A stretch of DNA of 64,000 nt from Candidatus Kerfeldbacteria bacterium (GCA_047946875.1 CP181398.1:574514-638513); one strand, 5' to 3'; shown: positions 544-64,000, numbered from the stretch's first letter. The notes: a model not told the origin generated them from the letters alone. Made by a program: numbers and translations.

Positions 544-3500
544 TTACTCCTTATTTTCAATGCACCATCTGTAGGCATTTTGAAAAGGCAATAACCATGG
601 ACTAGCATCAAAATCACTAAATTCTTCAGGCATCCAAGGCCACTGCCAAGGTAAAAATACTCTTTCTGGATGAGGCATCATAGCTAAATGACGACCATCT
701 GGAGAACATAATGCAGCTATTCCCATCGGACTACCGTTAGGATTGTCAGGATAAATCTCAGTAATATTGCTATCATTATCAATAAACCTAATCGGAGCAA
801 GTTTATTATCCAAAATATAATTGGTAATACTATCACTCTTACAATGATAACGACCTTCACCATGCGCTACCCAGACTCCAAGTTTTGAACCAGACATTCC
901 TTTTAACATAATCGAAGGACTATCTTCAATAATGATTGTAGAAAATCTTGATTCAAATCTCTCAGAAATATTTCTGATAAACCTAGGCTGGTTATCAAGA
1001 TCAATATTCTGATGTGGAATCCATCCAAGTAATGCCATTAACTGACATCCATTGCAGATACCGAACGAGAATGTATCGGGGCGTTTATAAAATCTATCAA
1101 ACTGATCCATGAGATGATCATTAAATTTTATTACACCAGCCCAACCTTTCCCGGCATCCATTACATCAGCAAAAGAAAAACCTCCAACAAATGCAATTCC
1201 CTGAAAAACATCAAGAGTTATCTTGTTGTTAAGCAGATCATGCATTGTGACATCCCAAACTTCAAAACCAGCCATAAAAAATGCAGAAGCCATTTCCTTA
1301 TCACCATTACTACCTCGCTCTCGCAAAATAGCAACTTTTGGTTTTTCATTTGACTCAATGATATATTGAGAAGTTTTCTCCGGAGTAAAGGTTACTGAAT
1401 ATGGTGGCGGAGCAATCCTAGTTAGATTGAGATCAAACTCAGATTGAACACAGGCAGGATTTGTTTGTAATTTATCCAACTCCATACTTGTTGTTTCCCA
1501 AATTGCTCTTAACTCTACCATTGGTTTACTCAGCACTGAGCCACCGTCATGGTTAATGTTGACTTGGCCACCTCGTTTACCAACATGGCCAATCAAGAGA
1601 TAAGGAATATCATACTCTCTCAATATTTTCACAACTTTATTATAATCAGAACACTCGATTAATATTCCAGCTTCTTCATTGAATAAAGTTTGAATTATAT
1701 TATTAGACAGCAGATTAACATCTACACCAACATTCCCAGCGAAAGCCATCTCAAGTAAAGAGACTATCAAACCACCATCACTCTTATCGTGTAATGAGAA
1801 TATTAGTTTTTTCTCAACTAACTCTTGTATTACATTAAATGAAAGCTTTAGTAATTCGACATCATCTATGTCAGGAGATTCATCACCTATCTGTTGGAAT
1901 ACTTGCGCTAAAGCAGATCCACCAAGCCTATCTTTGCCACCGGACAAATCAATAAATATAATTTCACTGCCAGGTTTCTTGAAATCTGGTGTGACTTTAC
2001 AAGTTATATCATCTACTGTGGCATAGCCAGTAATCACTAATTCAGGAGGAGCTTTGACAATATGAGTATTACCATCAGGACCTTTTGTTTTAGCTGCCAT
2101 AGATAGACTATCTTTACCGCCATCTATAGCTATACCTAGCTTGATCATGATATCACGAACGGCACAGGCTGCCTTATACAACCAAGCACCTTCACCAGGT
2201 TCTTTAGCAGCTAACATCCAATTACCAGAACATTTGATATCTTCTAACTGAGTTATCTTAGTTCCTGATATGTTTAATAACATCTCGGAAACTGACAAAC
2301 GAGCTGCTGCTTCCGGGGAGATCAAACCTTTGTTTGGTTGTTCTCCAATACTTGAAGCGATACCCGAGATATCAAAATGACTTTGTGCTACAACTGCGCA
2401 GTCAGCCAAAGTAATATGATTCGGACCAACACATTGTTGTTGGGCAATCAAACCAGTCACGCTTCTATCAACTTTTGTTGTTAAAAAGCGTTTTGATCCA
2501 ACCGAAACTAAACGCAGTACTAAATCTAATGCACTGGCTACCGTTAAATCTTGTGGTAGTTCCAATGGTTTTAAGGTTGGTAAGATTGTTTCAAGTTTGA
2601 AAGTCTTACGAGGCAATTTACCCAGCACTTTATCAAGTGGTAAATTCACTGGTGTGGTCCCATCATTCTTATCAAAAAGAATAAATAAACCATCTCCTGT
2701 CACCTGACCAATCAAAGCACATGGCGCATCTTCTCTATCACATATTTCCTTCACTTGATCAAAACGATCAGAACGAATTAAAAAAACTATCCTTTCTTGG
2801 CTTTCATTACAATGAATTTCATAATCAGATAAAGTTGCATCGCCTACTGGTATAGATCTCAAATCGATAACCGCACCAGCTGGATTAACAAGTTCGGGAA
2901 CAGCATTACAATCACCGCCCGCACCTAAATCAACCACTAACTCAACAGGATTATCATCACCTAGATTCACAAAAGTTTGAATGACTCTTGCAAGTCTATT
3001 TTCCATTTGAGCATTGCCGCGTTGGACAGAAGCAAAATCAAGCTCTGCTTCATTTTCACCAGAAATCATTGAGCTTGCAGCACCGCCACCAACACCAATA
3101 CGATAAGCTGGACCACCCACTTGGACGACCAACATATCTTTCTTTGGTTTACCCACTTTACTATGTGCATCATCATATTGTCCAATACCACCAGCCAGCA
3201 TAAGAGGCTTAAACCAACTGCGATACCCATCCGGCAAATCAATTCCAAAAGTTCGAGCATACCCATAAATTACAGGCACACCATAACAATTGCCATAGTC
3301 TGAAGCACCATTACTGGCTTGGATCATTATATCCAAAGGTGAAGCAAGATTTGGTGGATATTCCCAACCGTCGTTTTCCCAAGGCAAATCATATCCTAGA
3401 ATATGTAAATTACCAGTGCAGTAACCGGCGTTTGCAGCAATAACCAAACCACCAAGTCTCATTGCTAAGATATCTCTGAGCCAACCACCTATACCAGTTG

Positions 3501-7265: not shown

Positions 7266-7288
7266 ATATAACAGTATACCAAGAAATT

Positions 7289-11739: not shown

Positions 11740-11951
11740 GTGATAAGTATACCAAGAAAAACCATTCCAATAAAGAAATTTTTCAAAATAAAAAAGGGAC
11801 CGACAATGTCAAACCTTAAATACTTTTTTTAAGTATAGCTAAAACTTGAATTTACCTTCATGCCACATAATAGAAAATACTAGCAATAACGTTTGATAAG
11901 CTTTTTGATTTTAGCAACGATAATTTAAAATTTATTTCATCTGCCGTTTTT

Positions 11952-14904: not shown

Positions 14905-14978
14905 AGTATACCAAAAAACACCTCAACCTGCGAGGTGAGCTCTGGCAGGGGCTCGTACCTGCCTGCCGGCAGGCAGGG
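14905..14978 (-). terminator. terminator + extended -10 promoter cassette: two hairpins, T6, then TGGTATACT
   Basis: Minus strand CCCTGCCTGCCGGCAGGCAGGG ... CACCTCgcaggttGAGGTG-TTTTTT-GGTATACT. It terminates the 14997..15734 gene and provides an extended -10 (TGnTATAcT) about 34 nt before the 14425..14871 start. Confidence 0.55.
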
Positions 14979-14996: not shown

Positions 14997-15734
14997 TTAT
15001 TTGTTATTCCCATTCGTCTGCATAGTTGACCCAGATTCAATCTCGGGAATCTTAAATCCTTTTACTATTAACCAAATAGCCAACACTAGCTCCTGTATTG
15101 CTAATGGCGCAAATAACATAGTTGATAATGTGGAATTTGGATCTTCATTGATTAACAGAGGCAATAACCCTGAAATTAGCATAAGTGGAGCTCCAATAAT
15201 CCCCCAGACTGATAACCATCTTGGGATAAGTTTCGATTTGTAGAATAAGCAATATAAAATTATTGCACCAACACTAAAAACCGTATATCCAAGCATCCAA
15301 GTATAATCGGATACTGATAAAATTATATTTTTTAAGGTTTCAAAATAAGCTATATCTACAGATCCTGCTAGCGTAAATTCCCGGCTTAAGGCTAATATTG
15401 ATAGAAAACCAAGTATACCAACTAAGAAAATTCCACCCTCCATCACTCTACTGCCAAGATACCAATTTGCTAAACCTTCTTTTATTCCTGAATCTTTTTT
15501 TAATACTGGATAAATCATAAATGCGATAGCCGCTACTGCTATTGCCATTACCAACGCAAACATAGCTGCTAATATTACATTTGTTTCATTATTCGAAACA
15601 TTCAGCAACACGTCTCCATCGGTAAATAATGACCCCAAAGAAGCAGCTGATAATACTCCGGCAACGGTTGCAACGAGATATAATATACCGGCCCACAATG
15701 CCGCTTTTCTACTTGAAGTCATTTTCTCTTTCAT
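14997..15734 (-). CDS. DUF4386-like membrane protein
   Basis: 245 aa with six hydrophobic helices. The N-terminus (SRKAALWAGILYLVATVAGVLS) resembles the DUF4386 family. Confidence 0.5.
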   Translation of the reverse strand: MKEKMTSSRKAALWAGILYLVATVAGVLSAASLGSLFTDGDVLLNVSNNETNVILAAMFALVMAIAVAAIAFMIYPVLKKDSGIKEGLANWYLGSRVMEGGIFLVGILGFLSILALSREFTLAGSVDIAYFETLKNIILSVSDYTWMLGYTVFSVGAIILYCLFYKSKLIPRWLSVWGIIGAPLMLISGLLPLLINEDPNSTLSTMLFAPLAIQELVLAIWLIVKGFKIPEIESGSTMQTNGNNK

Positions 15735-15822
15735 AATTTTATAATTAAATAATTAACTTATTTAAGTATACCAAAAAATACCTAAATCATCGAGGTGACT
15801 TTTGATAACTTTGTAATCATAG

Positions 15823-21426: not shown

Positions 21427-21510
21427 AGTATACCAAAAAATACCTCAACCTGCGAGGTGGGTTCTGGCGGGTATTAGTGAACGACGTTCGAACTAAGATT
21501 CTTAATACGC
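21427..21510 (-). terminator. terminator + promoter cassette, family member
   Basis: Minus strand ...CGTCGTTCACTAATACCCGCCAGAACCCACCTCgcaggttGAGGTA-TTTTTTGGTATACT, between the FG-GAP gene and the GPH transporter gene. Confidence 0.5.
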
Positions 21511-23979: not shown

Positions 23980-24002
23980 ATTTAATAATTATAATGATTT
24001 TA

Positions 24003-24039
24003 GTATACCAAAAAACACCTCATTCAGCGAGGCGCCTTA
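24003..24039 (-). terminator. terminator + promoter cassette directly after tRNA-Trp, with compensatory stem changes
   Basis: Minus strand CGCCTCgctgaatGAGGTG-TTTTTTGGTATACT. The stem sequence differs from the other copies but its pairing is maintained. Confidence 0.5.
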
Positions 24040-52857: not shown

Positions 52858-52888
52858 AAAGCGCAGTTCTTAGAATTGCGCTTTTATA
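52858..52888. terminator. bidirectional terminator between hpf and the 52894 gene
   Basis: AAGCGCAgttcttagaaTTGCGCTT plus TTAT. Confidence 0.5.
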
Positions 52889-58386: not shown

Positions 58387-59013
58387 TTATAAAATTTCTT
58401 GTACTTTATCTTGTATTTTTTTGGCAATGTCAGACACCTCTCCTATTGCGGAAATAATAAACATTTTATCATTTTTTTCTGCTTGTTTTAGATACCCCTG
58501 ACGGACAGTTGAATGAAATTCTGTTGTTTCTTGATCTAATCTATCATGCTTTTCATCTCTCCTTCTAGCATCTGCTTCCTCTGGGGTAATATCTAAATAT
58601 ATAATTAAGTCAGGTTCTAAACCATATTTCGCCCAATCATTCATTTGTTTTATTTTATCCAAGTCAATCTTTCTGGCTACCCCCTGATAAGCAAATGTCG
58701 AAGTATCAAACCTATCACAAATAACAATTTTTCCTTTATCTAAGGCCGGCCTAACAACTTCAGCTACATGCTGAGCTCGTGATGCTAAATATAATAAAAG
58801 TTCAGCACGATTATCCATTTCTGAATGATTCTTATCTAATATTATTTCTCTAATTTTTTCTGCAATCACCGAATCTTTACCACCCGGTTCTCTAGTAATA
58901 ATATAATTAATATTTTTTTCTATTAAATATTCTTTCAATAATTCTATCTGGGTACTCTTACCCGATTTATCACCACCCTCCAAAACAATAAATTTTCCAT
59001 TTTTATCATTCAT
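58387..59013 (-). CDS. tmk: thymidylate kinase
   Basis: FIVLEGGDKSGKSTQ P-loop, the DRF motif region and the lid. Confidence 0.9.
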   Translation of the reverse strand: MNDKNGKFIVLEGGDKSGKSTQIELLKEYLIEKNINYIITREPGGKDSVIAEKIREIILDKNHSEMDNRAELLLYLASRAQHVAEVVRPALDKGKIVICDRFDTSTFAYQGVARKIDLDKIKQMNDWAKYGLEPDLIIYLDITPEEADARRRDEKHDRLDQETTEFHSTVRQGYLKQAEKNDKMFIISAIGEVSDIAKKIQDKVQEIL

Positions 59014-59014
59014 A

Positions 59015-59536
59015 TTATTTTTCTAAAACTAAAAATTTATATTTATATTTTTCATCACTACTTTCTCTTTCACTAACAACTTTTGTAAACTGAGAATATT
59101 CTGGAAAAAAAGTATCTGCTTCATACTCCCCTTCAACTTCCGTAACATATAAACGATCTATCAAATCAATAGTTTGTTTATAGATAGAAGCACCACCAAT
59201 TACAAAAATTTCCTCTTGATCATTTTCCTTAGCGATTTTAATACCTTCCTCAATAGAACTTGCTATTGTCACTCCATCAGCTTTATAATTCTTATCTAAC
59301 GAAAGTACTATATTCAATCTTTTTGGTAATGGCATTCCTATTGATTCAAAAGTAAGCTGTCCCATAATGACTGGGTGACCAGCTGTTATCTTACGAAAAT
59401 ATTGCATATCCTCTGGGATCTCCCACAATAATTTATTTTTGGATCCAATAGCCCTATCTTGTTTTGCTACCGCTACAATACTACTTACAATTGGTTGTCT
59501 CATATTATTTATCCTTATAATATTTTGGTAAAGCAA
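59015..59536 (-). CDS. folA: dihydrofolate reductase
   Basis: VAKQDRAIGSKNKLLWEIPEDMQYFRKITAGHPVIMGQLTFESIG matches DHFR. Confidence 0.9.
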   Translation of the reverse strand: MLYQNIIRINNMRQPIVSSIVAVAKQDRAIGSKNKLLWEIPEDMQYFRKITAGHPVIMGQLTFESIGMPLPKRLNIVLSLDKNYKADGVTIASSIEEGIKIAKENDQEEIFVIGGASIYKQTIDLIDRLYVTEVEGEYEADTFFPEYSQFTKVVSERESSDEKYKYKFLVLEK

Positions 59537-60038
59537 TCGGGGTTAACGCTGCTAAGACCATATTAATATATCCTTGTTCTCGTGTTACATGATTATCCGT
59601 AGCTAAGCCGAACCAACCCTCTTTTTGTTTGGTGTTTGTCTCTCCAACCAAATCATCATGAGCATCACCTAATTCCATGCCCTGATTTTTTATCTTGTTC
59701 ATTATTACTTTTGGTAATGGCACACCAAAAGAATGACCATAGTAAATTTTACCCTTTCTGTCTACAATTGCACACCAGGCATTAACAAAAGCAAAGTCAT
59801 CTCTAGTCTCTATCCCTCCTTCTATACCAACGCCATATTCAGCCTGTTCTGCAGCTTCTAAGGCCATTTTAGCGCGATTTAATGCACCGTGACGTGTTTC
59901 ATCGTTATATGGTTGATCAGCGATTCCTGAGGGAACTTTATGATAACAAAAATAAGACTTCTCTTTAAAACGCATTTTAAAAGCTTTTTCTACGGCCGAT
60001 ATTTTTACTGGGTTTACCGATCCAATTGATACTTTCAT
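59505..60038 (-). CDS. inosine/xanthosine triphosphatase-like non-canonical NTP pyrophosphatase (YjjX/NTPase I-T family)
   Basis: 177 aa. SVNPVKISAVEKAF, SGIADQPYNDETRHGALNRA, VGIEGGI and GLATDNHVTREQGYINMVLAALTP align to the YjjX family pattern. Confidence 0.7.
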   Translation of the reverse strand: MKVSIGSVNPVKISAVEKAFKMRFKEKSYFCYHKVPSGIADQPYNDETRHGALNRAKMALEAAEQAEYGVGIEGGIETRDDFAFVNAWCAIVDRKGKIYYGHSFGVPLPKVIMNKIKNQGMELGDAHDDLVGETNTKQKEGWFGLATDNHVTREQGYINMVLAALTPIALPKYYKDK

Positions 60039-60040
60039 AG

Positions 60041-60970
60041 TTATACTGCTATAGGAGCCTTGATCCTAGGATGTGGATCATACCCTTCTAATTCAAAATC
60101 TTCAAATTTAAAATCGAATATATCTTTTATATCAGGATTGATTTTCATAATTGGCAATTCTTTTGGTTCACGGGATAATTGTAATTTAACCTGATCAAAA
60201 TGATTATTATAAATATGAACGTCGCCAAATGTATGAACAAAATCTCCCAATTTTAATCCTGAAACTTGTGCCATCATCATGGCTAATAAAGCATAAGATG
60301 CAATATTAAATGGAACTCCCAAAAATACATCTGCACTACGTTGATAAAGTTGGCAAGACAATTTACCATCCAAGACATGAAATTGATAAATAGTATGACA
60401 AGGAGGTGGCGCTGCTATTTTACTTTTAATATTTTGTTGCAAGTCCCCTACATTCCACCCACTAACAATAATTCTACGAGAGTTAGGATTATTCCTTAAC
60501 AAATCCTGTACTTCAGCAATCTGATTAAACTTTGTGCCATCCGATGATTCCCAAGCTATCCATTGCTTACCATAAACTGGGCCAAGATCGCCATATTCTT
60601 TTGCAAAATCTTCATCGGACTTTATTTTCTCAATAAACTCTTTTTTCTTTTCAATCCACTCATCCGTATACATTGGATATTTTTCTTCTAATTTATTTTT
60701 AACCAAATATCCCTGATATGGCCATTCATCCCAAATATGAACCTTGTTATCAGCTAAATATTTAATATTAGTACTTCCACTAAGAAACCAAAGTAATTCA
60801 TGAATGATTGATCTCATGAAAACTTTCTTGGTAGTTACTAAAGGAAAGCCTTCACTTAAATTATATCTCATTTGATAACCAAAAAGACTCCGAGTACCTA
60901 CTCCCGTCCTGTCAGAGCGATCAACTCCTTTGTCTAATATTGTTTGTAATAAGTCTAGATATTTCTTCAT
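60041..60970 (-). CDS. thyA: thymidylate synthase
   Basis: 309 aa. [20 protein letters not shown] plus the catalytic Cys region. The promoter aTGACA - 17 nt - TGTATAAT lies at 60980-61010 on the minus strand. Confidence 0.95.
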
Positions 60971-61046
60971 AGTTTAATAATTATACATTATTTCAAATAA
61001 TTTGTCATAATAAAAAAATCCGTTCATTATAGTATTAATGAACGGA
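60954..61046. repeat. 93-bp direct repeat, copy 1: terminator hairpin + thyA promoter + first thyA codons
   Basis: tctagatatt...tccgttcattatagtattaatgaacgga. It is about 93% identical to 61904-61996, 950 bp away. Confidence 0.8.
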
Positions 61047-61055
61047 ATTATATGT

Positions 61056-61787
61056 CTAAATATCTCCAATGGATTTTGCCGGGCTTGAAGACACAACATT
61101 GAAAATATCCACTCCTGCTCTAAATTTAACTCCGAATCTACCCTTGAATAAAACATTATCAGGCACACTTCTGGGCAATAATTCACCCAAATAGCATAGT
61201 TGCTGATACCTAGGAGATCCTTCGCAATCAAGAGTAGAACTACGTATTAGTTTTTGAATAGATTTTTCGGTCTGGTCATGAAACACCTGATAATATTCTC
61301 CAAATTTCCGATGAAATTCGTAGATATCACCTTTGTAGGTGTACCCTACCCAAATACTATCAATAGTCACCACTCCGTCCATTGTGTAGGTAAACGCTTC
61401 TTCCTGAAATGGATTGAAATAACTCATTCCATCTACGACTCTCATTTCGGACCTAACAGATAAATCTTCTGGCAAGATGATTGTTTGACGAATCTCATTC
61501 TGACTGAGAAAAAACATCGAAGCGACGCATATCAAGAAGAATAAGGGTCTCAACGCAAGATTGTTGATCTTAATACCCAACAACCTTTTGTGATTTGGCA
61601 TCTTTAAATAAATAAATACTGCTGGGGCCAAGGTAAAAATTGCTCCCAACATAATCCATATACCCATAATATCCTCAGGATATTTCGGACTCAAAAACCT
61701 TGATACCATCAAAACTATCGATGCCAGCAGAAAAAATTTACCCAGATTGGCCAACTTTTTTGCTGTTTTAATTTCATGATCTTCCAT
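61056..61787 (-). CDS. hypothetical 3-TM membrane protein with an extracytoplasmic domain, tandem paralog A
   Basis: 243 aa. It is a paralog of 62008..62718; compare YEFHRKFGEYYQVFHDQTEKSIQKL with IQYHKQYHDQKDQFKLVAESL. Confidence 0.55.
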   Translation of the reverse strand: MEDHEIKTAKKLANLGKFFLLASIVLMVSRFLSPKYPEDIMGIWIMLGAIFTLAPAVFIYLKMPNHKRLLGIKINNLALRPLFFLICVASMFFLSQNEIRQTIILPEDLSVRSEMRVVDGMSYFNPFQEEAFTYTMDGVVTIDSIWVGYTYKGDIYEFHRKFGEYYQVFHDQTEKSIQKLIRSSTLDCEGSPRYQQLCYLGELLPRSVPDNVLFKGRFGVKFRAGVDIFNVVSSSPAKSIGDI

Positions 61788-61903
61788 TATCAGTTCTCCT
61801 CTGTAAAATTTAAAAGGACGTTTAGCATTTTAAAAAACTTTAACATACCAAAAAAGGCATGTCAATGCAATAATTAACTTAATCAAATATCTTTTATAAT
61901 AAA

Positions 61904-61996
61904 TCTAGATATTGTTTAATAGTTTAATAACTATACATTATTTTAAATAATTTGTCATAATAAAAAAATCCGTTCATTATAGTATTAATGAACGGA
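61904..61996. repeat. 93-bp direct repeat, copy 2 (degenerate thyA promoter/5' end with the ATG lost)
   Basis: Same hairpin tccgttcattatagtattaatgaacgga and -10 region. The thyA-like start is mutated: copy 2 has attaaacaatatctagat where copy 1 has attaaactATGaagaaatatctagac. Confidence 0.8.
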
Positions 61997-62007
61997 AATT
62001 TAACTTA

Positions 62008-62718
62008 TTACTTACCGACAATTTCTGAAATAAAGGTACGACTTGAAAGTGATAACTTTCCCGAAAACTTTATATGATCAGGTAAATCTGAGCCGGACAG
62101 TACTCCCGTTAAATAGCAAATTTGATCAGTTCTATACTGTCCACTATATAATATTGTCGATTCCCTTATTATATTAGTAAACAAAGATTCAGCAACCAAC
62201 TTAAATTGATCTTTCTGATCATGATACTGCTTATGATATTGAATAGCATTTCCATCGTAATAATATTCTATTAGGAACCCGTCCATAATAGGAGTATTTC
62301 GAACTAGCCAATACCTAGTCGCTGAGTAGTTAATATAATCAAAAGATGTTAATCCTTCAACAACTTGAGCTTTTTCCGGGTTATCATTCTCAAACATTAC
62401 TACTGTAGTATAACTATTCAACGATGGACTCACAAAAATCATTGAACCTATTGCCAAGAGGCATAACAATGGACATAAAATTCCACCAATAGTGATCGAG
62501 TATGATAATGGTTTTTTTGAAAACCATCCTAGCACTACTCCAAAGACAGCTACTATAGCTACCAAAAAAAATGCAACAAACATACAAACCATTATATTAT
62601 CAGCTGGATAACGATCAAGAAAGTTACGGATATAAATAAATATTCCCGCTAGACCATATGTCGACCATCCTATAACTGTTAACAATTTATTATTCTTTTT
62701 CTGCTTTGTCTCTGACAT
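62008..62718 (-). CDS. hypothetical 3-TM membrane protein with an extracytoplasmic domain, tandem paralog B
   Basis: 236 aa. Same architecture as 61056..61787. Confidence 0.55.
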   Translation of the reverse strand: MSETKQKKNNKLLTVIGWSTYGLAGIFIYIRNFLDRYPADNIMVCMFVAFFLVAIVAVFGVVLGWFSKKPLSYSITIGGILCPLLCLLAIGSMIFVSPSLNSYTTVVMFENDNPEKAQVVEGLTSFDYINYSATRYWLVRNTPIMDGFLIEYYYDGNAIQYHKQYHDQKDQFKLVAESLFTNIIRESTILYSGQYRTDQICYLTGVLSGSDLPDHIKFSGKLSLSSRTFISEIVGK

Positions 62719-62850
62719 TTCTGCCTCCTCGTTTTATAAATAAAAGTTAATGTACAATTCAAATATTATAAAAACTTAACATAAATATACTAACTATGTC
62801 AATATTTAGCTAATGTATTAACATTATAATTTAATTATGCCAATAAGTAT

Positions 62851-63360
62851 TTACTTTAGTAATAAATCACTATAAGAAGTCTGTATTTTCTTGAATTTAT
62901 TTAATTCCAAATGATTAATTACCTCTTTATGCTCTATCTTAGCTTTGGATAAATTTAATTTCTCAGTTAAGGTTTCTAGTTCTAAAAAAATACCCAATTT
63001 ACTAACAGTATCTAGATGCACCCTAGTTTGCCTATACATCCAAAGTTCTCGCCTCTTCTTAACAACCACCTTATTCCCATAAGCATTACTTAGTATTTTT
63101 GTAGTTTGGGCACTTTGTTTCTTATCCAAATTCAATATATAGTATTCAGACACTTTGGACTTAGCACTATCTGGTCTTCGGTAATATATTAATTCAAATT
63201 TTTTATTAATAATTTCTCGTAATTTAAGTCGTCCACTTGGACAATTAAAATAAGTATCTACTTGGTTAAGAATAGCTATTTTTTTCGCTTTTATTTTTTT
63301 TAATTGTAAAACTATATCTTTGTGGTTATCTATCTTAACTTTTAGTTCTACATTTTTCAT
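62851..63360 (-). CDS. CYTH-domain protein (class IV adenylyl cyclase / triphosphate tunnel metalloenzyme family)
   Basis: 169 aa. The N-terminal ELKVKI (ExExK motif), the RLKLREI and ELIYYRR pattern and the C-terminal ELETL acidic motifs are typical of CYTH. Confidence 0.65.
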   Translation of the reverse strand: MKNVELKVKIDNHKDIVLQLKKIKAKKIAILNQVDTYFNCPSGRLKLREIINKKFELIYYRRPDSAKSKVSEYYILNLDKKQSAQTTKILSNAYGNKVVVKKRRELWMYRQTRVHLDTVSKLGIFLELETLTEKLNLSKAKIEHKEVINHLELNKFKKIQTSYSDLLLK

Positions 63361-63363
63361 ATT

Positions 63364-63786
63364 TTATTTTCCGCTAGATAAAAATCCTGCTTCGCCACGC
63401 TCTGTATCTCCTAATTCATCAACAACTTCAAATTCAGTAGCTTCAAATTTTTGAATCAACATCTGAGCAATCTTATCACCTATTTTGAACTCATAGTCTT
63501 TATCCGTAGTGTTTAACAACAATATACCAATTTCACCACGATAATTACTGTCTATTACTCCCGCCATAGAATGTATACCAAACTTTGTAGCCATCCCGCT
63601 ACGATCCCAAATCAAAGCTACCATATCAGATGGTATCTCAATAGCAAAACCTAATTTAAACAAATGTCTTTCACCCGGTTTCAAAACCACGCTCTCTCGA
63701 GAATACAAATCAAGTCCAGCATCACCTAATCTACCATGGGCCGGTACTTTAACATCTTTTGCCAATAATTTGATCTTGGCTTTCAT
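63364..63786 (-). CDS. dut: dUTP diphosphatase
   Basis: 140 aa. GRLGDAGLDLYS, RSGMATKFGI and GVIDSNYRGEIGILLLN are dUTPase motifs 1-5. Confidence 0.9.
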   Translation of the reverse strand: MKAKIKLLAKDVKVPAHGRLGDAGLDLYSRESVVLKPGERHLFKLGFAIEIPSDMVALIWDRSGMATKFGIHSMAGVIDSNYRGEIGILLLNTTDKDYEFKIGDKIAQMLIQKFEATEFEVVDELGDTERGEAGFLSSGK

Positions 63787-63789
63787 ATT

Positions 63790-64000
63790 TTATTCTTTAT
63801 TCCAATCTGATTTATATTGCTTATACTTAACACCTGCTAAATCTAACATCTTGCGTGACGCAATCCAAATATCTTCATCATGATACTTATCACTCTCAAA
63901 AATAACTTCTTTTATACCTTTTTGTATTATTGCTTTACTACATTCGTTACACGGAAAAAGAGTACAATAAAGTTTGCTACCTTTTGTATCAGCATTTGTA
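63790..64000 (-). CDS. dCMP deaminase (ComEB-like), C-terminal part; N-terminus beyond the window
   Basis: Minus-strand frame ...KLYCTLFPCNECSKAIIQKGIKEVIFESDKYHDEDIWIASRKMLDLAGVKYKQYKSDWNKE* carries the zinc-binding PCxxC motif of CMP/dCMP deaminases. The stop is at 63790-63792. Confidence 0.7.
   Translation of the reverse strand, partial: TNADTKGSKLYCTLFPCNECSKAIIQKGIKEVIFESDKYHDEDIWIASRKMLDLAGVKYKQYKSDWNKE

Follow-up and report, generated by a model that had tools for sequence, protein, structure and literature searches.

Why should a cluster of genes for dTTP synthesis hold, in its middle, two highly divergent membrane-protein genes, each followed by nearly the same stretch of regulatory DNA and by a piece of a neighbouring gene? 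The question is raised by the right end of a 64,000-nt stretch of the genome of a Candidatus Kerfeldbacteria bacterium (GCA_047946875.1, CP181398.1:574514-638513; hereafter the window), where all genes lie on the minus strand and where two genes that we call memA and memB stand between the genes for a dUTPase (dut) and a CYTH-domain protein on one side and thyA on the other. A first-pass annotation had read the arrangement as the tandem duplication of a 950-bp unit inside a thymidylate operon, and had suggested that the membrane proteins and the CYTH protein take part in deoxynucleoside triphosphate (dNTP) metabolism. We compared the window with related loci and public contigs, which are designated by L numbers. 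The reading that we favour, with roughly even confidence, is that the mem genes occupy a hypervariable locus whose products face outward and carry an SPFH-like domain, and whose divergent alleles are exchanged, and in this genome have been added, by recombination between the promoter and terminator modules at their flanks.

The repeat, the mem genes and their slot

A repeat search of the region returned a single direct-repeat family, with one copy proximal to thyA (R1, 60910-61052) and one distal copy (R2, 61860-62002), both read on the minus strand. The copies are 143 nt long, 85% identical and spaced by exactly 950 nt, which confirms a head-to-tail unit of that length, and they share an exact 53-nt stretch (60995-61047 and 61945-61997) that occurs twice in the window and is expected zero times in shuffled sequences. 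In the direction of transcription, each copy starts 3-5 nt past the stop codon of a mem gene and contains a perfect 11-bp hairpin, TCCGTTCATTA/ATACTA/TAATGAACGGA, followed by seven T residues (dG -14.2 kcal/mol, z -5.7); it lies at 61019-61046 behind memA and at 61969-61996 behind memB, and a stable hairpin with a T-run downstream of the stop codon has the form of an intrinsic terminator. The thyA promoter comes next. In R1 it consists of ATGACA (61003-61008), a 17-nt spacer and TATAAT (60980-60985), and is followed after 9 nt by the thyA ATG and the first 61 nt of the gene. In R2, ATGACA (61953-61958) is retained, the -10 box reads TATAGT (61930-61935), the ATG has become ATT, and the remnant of thyA (61860-61920) has an in-frame TAA at codon 9. 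A terminator, the thyA promoter and a decayed thyA start were what the first-pass annotation had seen in the repeat, correctly, but it had set the length at 93 bp with six thyA codons, and the homology with thyA alone covers about 20 codons (61 nt). This homology ends exactly at the sequence TGACA (60910-60914 in R1, 61860-61864 in R2), and in R2 the memA promoter has these terminal five bases within its -35 box, TTGACA.

An assembly artefact can be dismissed as the source of this structure, because an independent NCBI contig, SWBW01001861.1, spans all of the repeat and both mem genes, with three differences in the 12.9 kb that it shares with the window and none in this region. L001 and L002 differ from the window at three distant bases only, and L003 (GCA_008633345.1) is identical over its overlap; the L003 contig ends at window position 61951, inside R2, a typical place for an assembler to stop at a repeat. 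The sole differences of L001 (52866, 52871 and 52876) are exactly those expected from the inversion of a hairpin loop. A terminator hairpin, AGCGCAGTTCTTAGAATTGCGCT, is found at 52861-52882, in the intergenic segment 52849-52893 between genes for proteins of 111 and 177 aa.

Folding of six related loci gave, behind the mem gene of every one, a hairpin equivalent to that of the repeat (-14 to -18 kcal/mol), with the structure kept and the sequence varying, and the complete module of hairpin, T-run, (A/G)TGACA-17-TATAAT, 9 nt and ATG is present upstream of thyA in L007, L004, L010, L009, L091 and L092. An Rfam search of the repeat and of the whole window gave only tRNAs above threshold, and two sub-threshold chance matches.

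Each mem gene possesses its own conserved promoter, a strong Shine-Dalgarno (SD) sequence and its own terminator. The putative promoter and 5' untranslated region (UTR) of memA (61788-61865), identified by a promoter scan and by family homology, contain TTGACA (61860-61865), a 17-nt spacer, TG-TAAAGT (61837-61842) and the SD AGAGGAGA, while those of memB (62719-62810) contain TTGACA (62797-62802), TGn-TAAGTT (62773-62781), a conserved UTR stretch (62742-62759) and the SD GAGGAGG. In the alignment of eight upstream regions from six loci, the mem promoter shows an invariant ATTGACAT, followed by a conserved TGTTAAGTTTTT. The 18-nt UTR stretch of memB, AATTGTACATTAACTTTT, recurs without a change upstream of the mem gene of L009 (about 3405-3422), where the proteins are only about 35% identical, and it possibly has a regulatory function in the mem mRNA.

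The products of memB (62008-62718, 236 aa) and memA (61056-61787, 243 aa) are paralogs with 26-27% amino acid identity (BLASTP E 1e-17) and about 42% identity of their DNA. Three hydrophobic transmembrane (TM) segments had been predicted for them and are found in both, together with a C-terminal domain of about 140 aa. In all members of the family, the N-terminus and the second loop are rich in K and R and the C-terminal domain is net acidic. Application of the positive-inside rule gives an N-in/C-out orientation for all seven full-length members, and the C-terminal domain probably faces outward.

The AlphaFold2 model of full-length memA, built from an eight-sequence alignment (predicted local distance difference test, pLDDT, 84; predicted template-modelling score, pTM, 0.72), begins with three N-terminal TM helices, continues with a beta-rich region and a long helix, and closes with a second helix and a final strand. 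When this model was compared with the PDB by Foldseek, prohibitin and flotillin came first (E 6e-3, probability 0.99), although with a template-modelling score (TM-score) of 0.32. For the C-terminal domain of memB modelled alone (pLDDT 75), the order was flotillin (7.5), prohibitin (7.4) and then stomatin, QmcA, HflC, erlin and FliL. Pfam, NCBIfam and PDB-profile searches gave no match for any of the eight members, Band_7/SPFH included, and PADLOC and PHROGs gave none for mem either. We therefore describe the modelled C-terminal domain as SPFH-like at the level of the fold only, and do not place the family within SPFH. A T-fold (pterin/purine-binding), an attractive idea beside thyA and DHFR, was also considered for this domain and is held to be less likely, as its matches were consistently below those to SPFH and the domain has no conserved catalytic-type residue pattern.

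The family itself is small. A HMMER scan of 1.84 billion cluster representatives with a profile made from memA and memB retrieved eight proteins, namely the two queries and six others, with pairwise identities of 24-53%; a word-indexed homolog search with memA returned only memA, and the family profile returned three clusters there. Judged from these searches, mem is a tiny, unannotated, clade-restricted family of membrane proteins.

Wherever its context could be recovered, mem lies between dut/CYTH and thyA. The order is deaminase-dut-mem-thyA-ITPase-DHFR-tmk-sigma70-gatB in L007, dut-CYTH-mem-thyA in L004, mem-thyA in L010, dut-mem-(deoxyribosyltransferase fragment)-thyA-DHFR in L005, CYTH-mem in the short contig L008, and dut-DUF2127-CYTH-orf115-mem-orf94-thyA in L009, which is identical to L093. 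The more distant L096/L097 have dut-deoxyribosyltransferase-CYTH-thyA and no mem. Two mem genes were seen in no relative; the whole slot is covered in L007 and L009/L093, which have one each, and the sequences of L004, L005, L008 and L010 are short or gapped. In the closest relative, represented by the overlapping contigs L098 and L092 (CYTH 87% and ThyA 90% identical in amino acids to the window), the interval between CYTH and the thyA promoter has no mem and is occupied by a broken lipoprotein gene and small unrelated open reading frames (ORFs). The content of the dut-thyA slot thus differs among relatives while the surrounding synteny is conserved, and the slot is a site of gene turnover.

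Other occupants of the slot deserve a description of their own. The lipoprotein-like ORF of the closest relative (L098 759-1159, the same in L092) encodes a signal peptide ending in CIGCSG. Two independent contigs show an in-frame TAA within it, which leaves a choice between a pseudogene and read-through or recoding. At L009 2895-3440 (and in L093) the mem promoter is duplicated, with one copy driving an ORF of 115 aa and the next driving mem, and the 94-aa ORF that follows between mem and thyA has its own promoter and terminator and a homolog in L091. Small genes that carry promoters seem to accumulate in the slot.

The clade was not seen among GTDB representative genomes, where a degenerate pattern for the thyA promoter gave 0 matches and a ThyA protein search returned distant genomes only (best 67% identical); 80 thyA loci from this search were reused as a negative control for synteny. 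A scan of metagenomes with the pattern retrieved just two short contigs, one of which, L092, is the closest relative. The synteny of mem with thyA is confined to a narrow clade whose members keep the entire neighbourhood in the same order, and for this reason we give it little functional weight.

Origin of the double locus

A simple duplication would give all parts of the unit the same age, and they do not have it. From the hairpin to the ATG, R1 and R2 are identical at 75 of 77 positions (97%), and in the thyA part at 34 of 48 (about 70%; Fisher p 1.6e-4). The third codon positions of memA and memB are identical at a fraction of 0.32, where 0.29 is expected by chance from composition, and the fraction of residues identical in both proteins that are encoded by the same codon is 0.37, compared with 0.51 for thyA between the window and L007 and 0.60 between the window and L092. 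Since selection on the protein cannot erase synonymous similarity, memA and memB would be older than the joint at R2, or one of them was imported. R1 and R2, for their part, share derived bases in codons 5, 11, 14 and 18 that are found neither in L092 nor in any other relative, which indicates that R2 was copied from the thyA of its own lineage after the split from L092; with L092 and the other relatives as outgroups, about 13 changes in the 61-nt thyA stretch are specific to R2 and about 5-6 to R1. The repeat thus appears younger than the split from the closest relative, and the ORFs look older than much deeper splits. Of the proposed tandem duplication, the head-to-tail geometry stands, with promoter regions homologous at 44 of 80 positions, the 143-nt repeat and a novel joint; a uniform age does not.

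The same separation of ages was found between two related loci. L004 and L010 have thyA genes that are 92% identical in nucleotides (third positions 0.82) and a terminator-promoter core identical at 68 of 71 positions, while their mem proteins share 35% of amino acids with a third-position identity of 0.42 (Fisher 1.6e-8), with a sharp switch at the mem stop codon from one regime to the other. Divergent alleles are found there between conserved flanks, with synonymous divergence above that of the flanks, and the pair in the window follows the same pattern. This decoupling suggests that the lineages of mem alleles are old and that recombination in the conserved flanks carries them from genome to genome.

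Based on these results, we propose the following origin. memA and memB would be two old, very divergent alleles or paralogs that came together in the variable slot between the dut(-CYTH) and thyA operons. By recombination at the shared TGACA (thyA +57 to +61), thyA would have been fused, at about position +61, with the -35 box of a mem promoter, and R2 would be the second copy of terminator, thyA promoter and 61-nt thyA stub that this joint created. Because the R2 stub has the derived bases of the lineage while the ORFs are saturated at synonymous sites, a different allele was probably brought in. This may have occurred by homology-facilitated illegitimate recombination, a mechanism known from naturally transformable species, in which DNA of a close relative would have been anchored in the repeat and thyA while its other end was joined at the microhomology, so that a mem allele was added. 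Alternatively, a microhomology-mediated tandem duplication may have taken place in situ, with one ORF replaced afterwards through crossovers in the promoter and terminator modules. These two routes fit the data alike and are not separable here. After the event, the thyA stub of R2 would decay freely. At the rate of the stub, about 16 changes per 77 nt would be expected in the R2 core, and 2 are seen; a nearly unchanged core beside a decayed stub points to a segment that is under selection or being converted. R2 may thus have been kept as the terminator of memB, and its promoter copy probably adds transcription into memA.

A further route would begin with an ancient tandem duplication, before the clade diversified, followed by loss of one copy in the relatives and by gene conversion from R1 to R2 of the terminator-promoter block and, earlier, also of the stub. 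We consider it possible but rather unlikely. An identity mosaic that falls off from the core (97%) through the stub (about 70%) to the saturated ORFs is in its favour, the exact 53-nt stretch is long enough to serve as a substrate for conversion, and a crude clock that expects about nine differences in the core, where two are observed, agrees with it. It requires, however, independent losses of a paralog in many lineages, with two copies seen in no relative and none at all in the closest one, and the orthologs do not divide into a memA set and a memB set, the pairwise identities in this comparison all being 24-37%. The two routes described above are preferred because they involve fewer events and because the exchange process that they invoke is documented independently in L004 and L010, so that a model based on conversion only is not needed. 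Less probable still, in our judgement, is the view closest to the original interpretation, namely a single in-situ duplication of the 950-bp unit followed by ordinary or accelerated divergence, with the genes tied to dTTP synthesis by their position. The geometry and the homology at both ends of the unit are compatible with this view, positive selection could speed up protein change, and mem is found only next to thyA or dut. Yet the synonymous sites of memA and memB are saturated while the non-functional thyA stub produced by the same event retains about 70% identity, and selection on a protein cannot accelerate synonymous change; the proposed tie to dTTP synthesis is further weakened by the apparent organization of the mem genes in separate transcription units and by the variability of a slot that has no mem in the closest relative.

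Mobility or site-specific recombination could also be invoked for the repeat, as in a miniature inverted-repeat transposable element (MITE) or an integron-like cassette site, and so could an error of assembly, given that a perfect palindrome flanks a gene-sized insert and that the L003 assembly breaks inside R2. We find this highly improbable. The 64 kb contain the repeat just twice, viral contigs do not have the exact hairpin, Rfam has no match, and the genes called in the 10 kb to each side include no integrase or transposase; the palindrome with its T-run behaves as an ordinary terminator, with structure kept and sequence changing in the relatives, and the stub of the neighbouring thyA inside the repeat points to local recombination. 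As for assembly, the independent contig that spans the structure has only three distant differences, and the ORFs are too different for an assembler to have collapsed or duplicated them. A diversity-generating retroelement was considered and rejected: the divergence extends over the whole ORF, no reverse transcriptase is present among the called genes within 10 kb, and there is no further repeat of the mem sequence.

Several points weigh against the origin by allele exchange that we prefer. The TGACA junction is a 5-nt microhomology read from diverged sequence and could be a coincidence; the molecular-clock arguments use segments of 48-77 nt and one outgroup; and low-identity protein alignments may understate third-position identity, an objection that the same-codon comparison answers in part. 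Allele exchange is documented by a single close ortholog pair, L004 and L010, in which only the 3' boundary is visible. The promoter and terminator calls are predictions from sequence signals, and the outward topology has the positive-inside rule as its single basis.

With respect to function, we suggest with low confidence that mem is a cell-surface structure under frequency-dependent, or more generally diversifying, selection from contact with phages or hosts, because its expression signals are strong, its C-terminal domain is predicted to face outward, its alleles appear to be replaced rapidly and the bacterium is episymbiotic. SPFH families often act as pairs of paralogs, and by analogy such pairing would be a possible rationale for keeping two mem alleles. 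A bolder combination, which we regard as speculative and rather unlikely, would make mem a cassette-like allele-exchange site, at which recombination between its own promoter and the terminator with the leaderless thyA promoter would keep a strongly expressed, SPFH-like surface scaffold hypervariable. The tandem pair would then be an allele addition and yield a hetero-oligomeric (HflK/C-like) structure used in host or phage recognition, and the NxExK CYTH subfamily described below would hydrolyse (d)NTPs or triphosphates in the thymidylate pathway, a role so far unrecognised.

Transcription units, dTTP-synthesis genes and the CYTH protein

The identities given to the flanking genes by the annotation were right. 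The 3' part of a dCMP deaminase gene (63790-64000), with a visible PCNEC motif, runs off the window; it was identified by a PF00383 gene call on the near-identical L001, on which it ends 3 nt before dut. The contig gene calls give the order secE-nusG-L11-DUF5671-L1-deaminase-dut leading into the cluster, an arrangement in keeping with Patescibacteria/CPR. Pfam confirms dut (63364-63786, 140 aa; PF00692, E 5.7e-30), the CYTH gene (62851-63360, 169 aa) and, on the other side of the mem genes, thyA (60041-60970, 309 aa; PF00303, E 2e-116), an NTPase_I-T or YjjX-like ITPase-XTPase (59505-60038, 177 aa; PF01931, E 7e-49), which the NCBIfam inosine/xanthosine triphosphatase models match below their cutoffs, DHFR (59015-59503, 162 aa as called on L001; PF00186, E 6e-53) and tmk (58387-59013, 208 aa; PF02223, E 5e-49). 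A sigma-70 factor gene and gatB follow downstream of tmk.

Two of these genes show variation of their own among the relatives. The tmk of the window is 23-29% identical to the tmk genes in the same position in L007, L093 and L096, which are 48-73% identical to each other, and the neighbouring genes are 61-86% identical; on these figures, a distantly related tmk seems to have replaced the original gene in situ in the window. ThyA has 309 aa in the window, L007, L093 and L091, and 270 aa in L096 (5540-6352) and L005 (2219-3031), a gap that corresponds to an internal insert of about 40 aa, with the shared part 76% identical.

The spacing of the genes agrees with the promoter and terminator predictions. 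The deaminase, dut and CYTH genes are 3 nt apart, and from thyA through ITPase and DHFR to tmk the genes are packed or overlap. Since the mem genes and thyA carry their own promoters and the mem genes their own terminators, the region looks like four transcription units, deaminase-dut-CYTH, memB, memA and thyA-ITPase-DHFR-tmk, and what had been called a thymidylate operon would be two operons parted by two independent mem units. The placement of the mem genes inside such an operon is therefore not supported, and neither is the link of their function to dNTP metabolism: the Pfam, NCBIfam and PDB-profile searches detected no nucleotide-related domain in mem, its units look separate, and the content of its slot varies, with no mem in the closest relative.

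The thyA promoter, ATGACA-17-TATAAT, agrees with the consensus at 11 of 12 positions and is the best promoter-like site in a 6-kb scan. The thyA gene has no SD, and the spacing -10-N9-ATG is identical in all seven related loci examined. Given these two features and the many similar gene starts in the window, the thyA mRNA is probably leaderless or nearly so. The motif TTGGTATACT, an extended -10 element (TGnTATACT), is enriched in the window, with 19 matches with at most one mismatch where 6.5 are expected. Seven matches are exact, and exact minus-strand copies are found, for example, at 7273-7282, 11746-11755, 14905-14914, 15412-15421, 15765-15774, 21427-21436 and 24002-24011. Most exact copies lie no more than 30-40 nt upstream of gene starts, mostly of genes that have no SD, and one lies within an ORF. 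From these signals, transcripts with no leader or a short one seem common in this genome.

The CYTH gene starts 3 nt after the dut stop codon and has no SD. Its product matches the Pfam CYTH model over residues 1-163 with 63.8 bits (cutoff 23.2) and the cyaB equivalog TIGR00318 with 46.1 bits, below the cutoff of 57.95; the source annotations nevertheless call the subfamily a class IV adenylate cyclase, despite that score. Among 12 homologs (P0011-P0101), NxExK is invariant in place of ExExK, and R44, K46, R48, R62, K102, R104, R113, D117, E127 and E129 are invariant in the subfamily. The nearest relatives of solved structure are the archaeal 2dc4, 1yem and 2een, which are of unknown function, and a literature search for CYTH with dut or thyA yielded only an unrelated phage ORF list and no description of a CYTH protein embedded with dut and thyA.

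Could this protein serve the deoxynucleotide cluster as an accessory enzyme, for example by hydrolysing triphosphates or (d)NTPs beside Dut and the ITPase? We hold this to be conceivable, though somewhat against the balance of the evidence, and it is compatible with the allele-exchange origin of the mem locus. In its favour, besides the tight packing with dut, the dut-thyA interval holds the gene in L004, L009/L093 and L098 with L092 as in the window, and on L008 the gene is upstream of mem; in L096/L097 the CYTH gene (54% identical) follows a nucleoside 2-deoxyribosyltransferase gene and overlaps the start of thyA by 4 nt; and all basic and acidic residues of the tunnel are invariant in the subfamily. 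On the other hand, L007 and L005 lack the gene and keep the rest of the cluster, a homolog with 57% identity (L094) stands beside an ArsR-type regulator and FGase, far from any thyA, and CYTH was found in 0 of 80 thyA neighbourhoods of other phyla, where DHFR was found in 64. Substrate specificity is not readable from the sequence. The suggested link with dNTP metabolism does better for CYTH than for mem, given the packing with dut and the overlap with thyA in a distant relative, but its support is weak; a role in nucleotide or triphosphate hydrolysis is plausible.

Comparison with known systems

The findings are variations on known themes, namely tandem duplication, flexible islets, intrinsic terminators and leaderless promoters. 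What is added here is that the histories of the repeat and of the ORFs differ, that the modules are the conserved flanks of a hypervariable slot, and that mem is a tiny family with a domain modelled as SPFH-like. The cluster resembles the thyA-folA pairs of other bacteria in that DHFR follows thyA, as in 64 of the 80 other genomes sampled. Near thyA, none of dut, ITPase and tmk was found in any of these 80, and the addition of dCMP deaminase, dut, ITPase and tmk to one thyA neighbourhood is specific to this clade; unlike those clusters, the one studied here is split by accessory genes that appear to be transcribed independently. The case also calls for caution with guilt by association, as the embedding of a gene in a metabolic cluster can be purely historical or recombinational. 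The conserved -10-N9-ATG arrangement would, for its part, be a clear further example of a leaderless essential gene in bacteria of the candidate phyla radiation (CPR).

Compared with CYTH proteins and triphosphate tunnel metalloenzymes (CyaB, thiamine triphosphatase, and inorganic triphosphate (PPPi) and NTP phosphohydrolases), the CYTH protein of the window has the whole-length Pfam match, the basic tunnel residues and the acidic metal ligands. It differs from them by NxExK in place of ExExK, by a score below the cyaB cutoff and by its embedding in a dut/thyA cluster, a linkage that offers a modest, testable lead to the substrate of one CYTH subfamily. For the mem proteins, the closest named comparison is with SPFH/Band 7 proteins, such as HflK/HflC, stomatin, prohibitin 1/2, flotillin 1/2, QmcA and FliL. 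The joint at R2 is like those of homology-facilitated illegitimate recombination and of microhomology-mediated tandem duplication in bacteria, with one end in the homologous repeat and thyA and the other at the 5-nt TGACA; unlike them, the event is reconstructed here from diverged sequence.

The nearest systems to the locus as a whole are the replacement-type flexible islands and hypervariable surface loci, such as O-antigen and glycosylation islands and phage- or host-driven alleles. As in these, a single chromosomal position is taken by divergent alleles, the insert has diverged at synonymous sites far more than the conserved flanks, the boundaries are sharp, and the content of the slot differs even between close relatives. 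The locus described here differs from them in scale and composition, since the unit is a single 0.7-kb gene, the flanks are promoter and terminator modules, and the genome is that of a CPR bacterium of about 1.3 Mb; two alleles are moreover present in tandem, and surface exposure and the selective agent are inferred. If our interpretation is correct, a minimal CPR genome would use promoter and terminator-promoter modules as homology arms for the swapping or stacking of surface-protein alleles, the mem family would be a candidate determinant of cell-surface identity in Kerfeldbacteria, and the slot between dut and thyA would correspond, in compact form, to the flexible islands known from larger bacteria.

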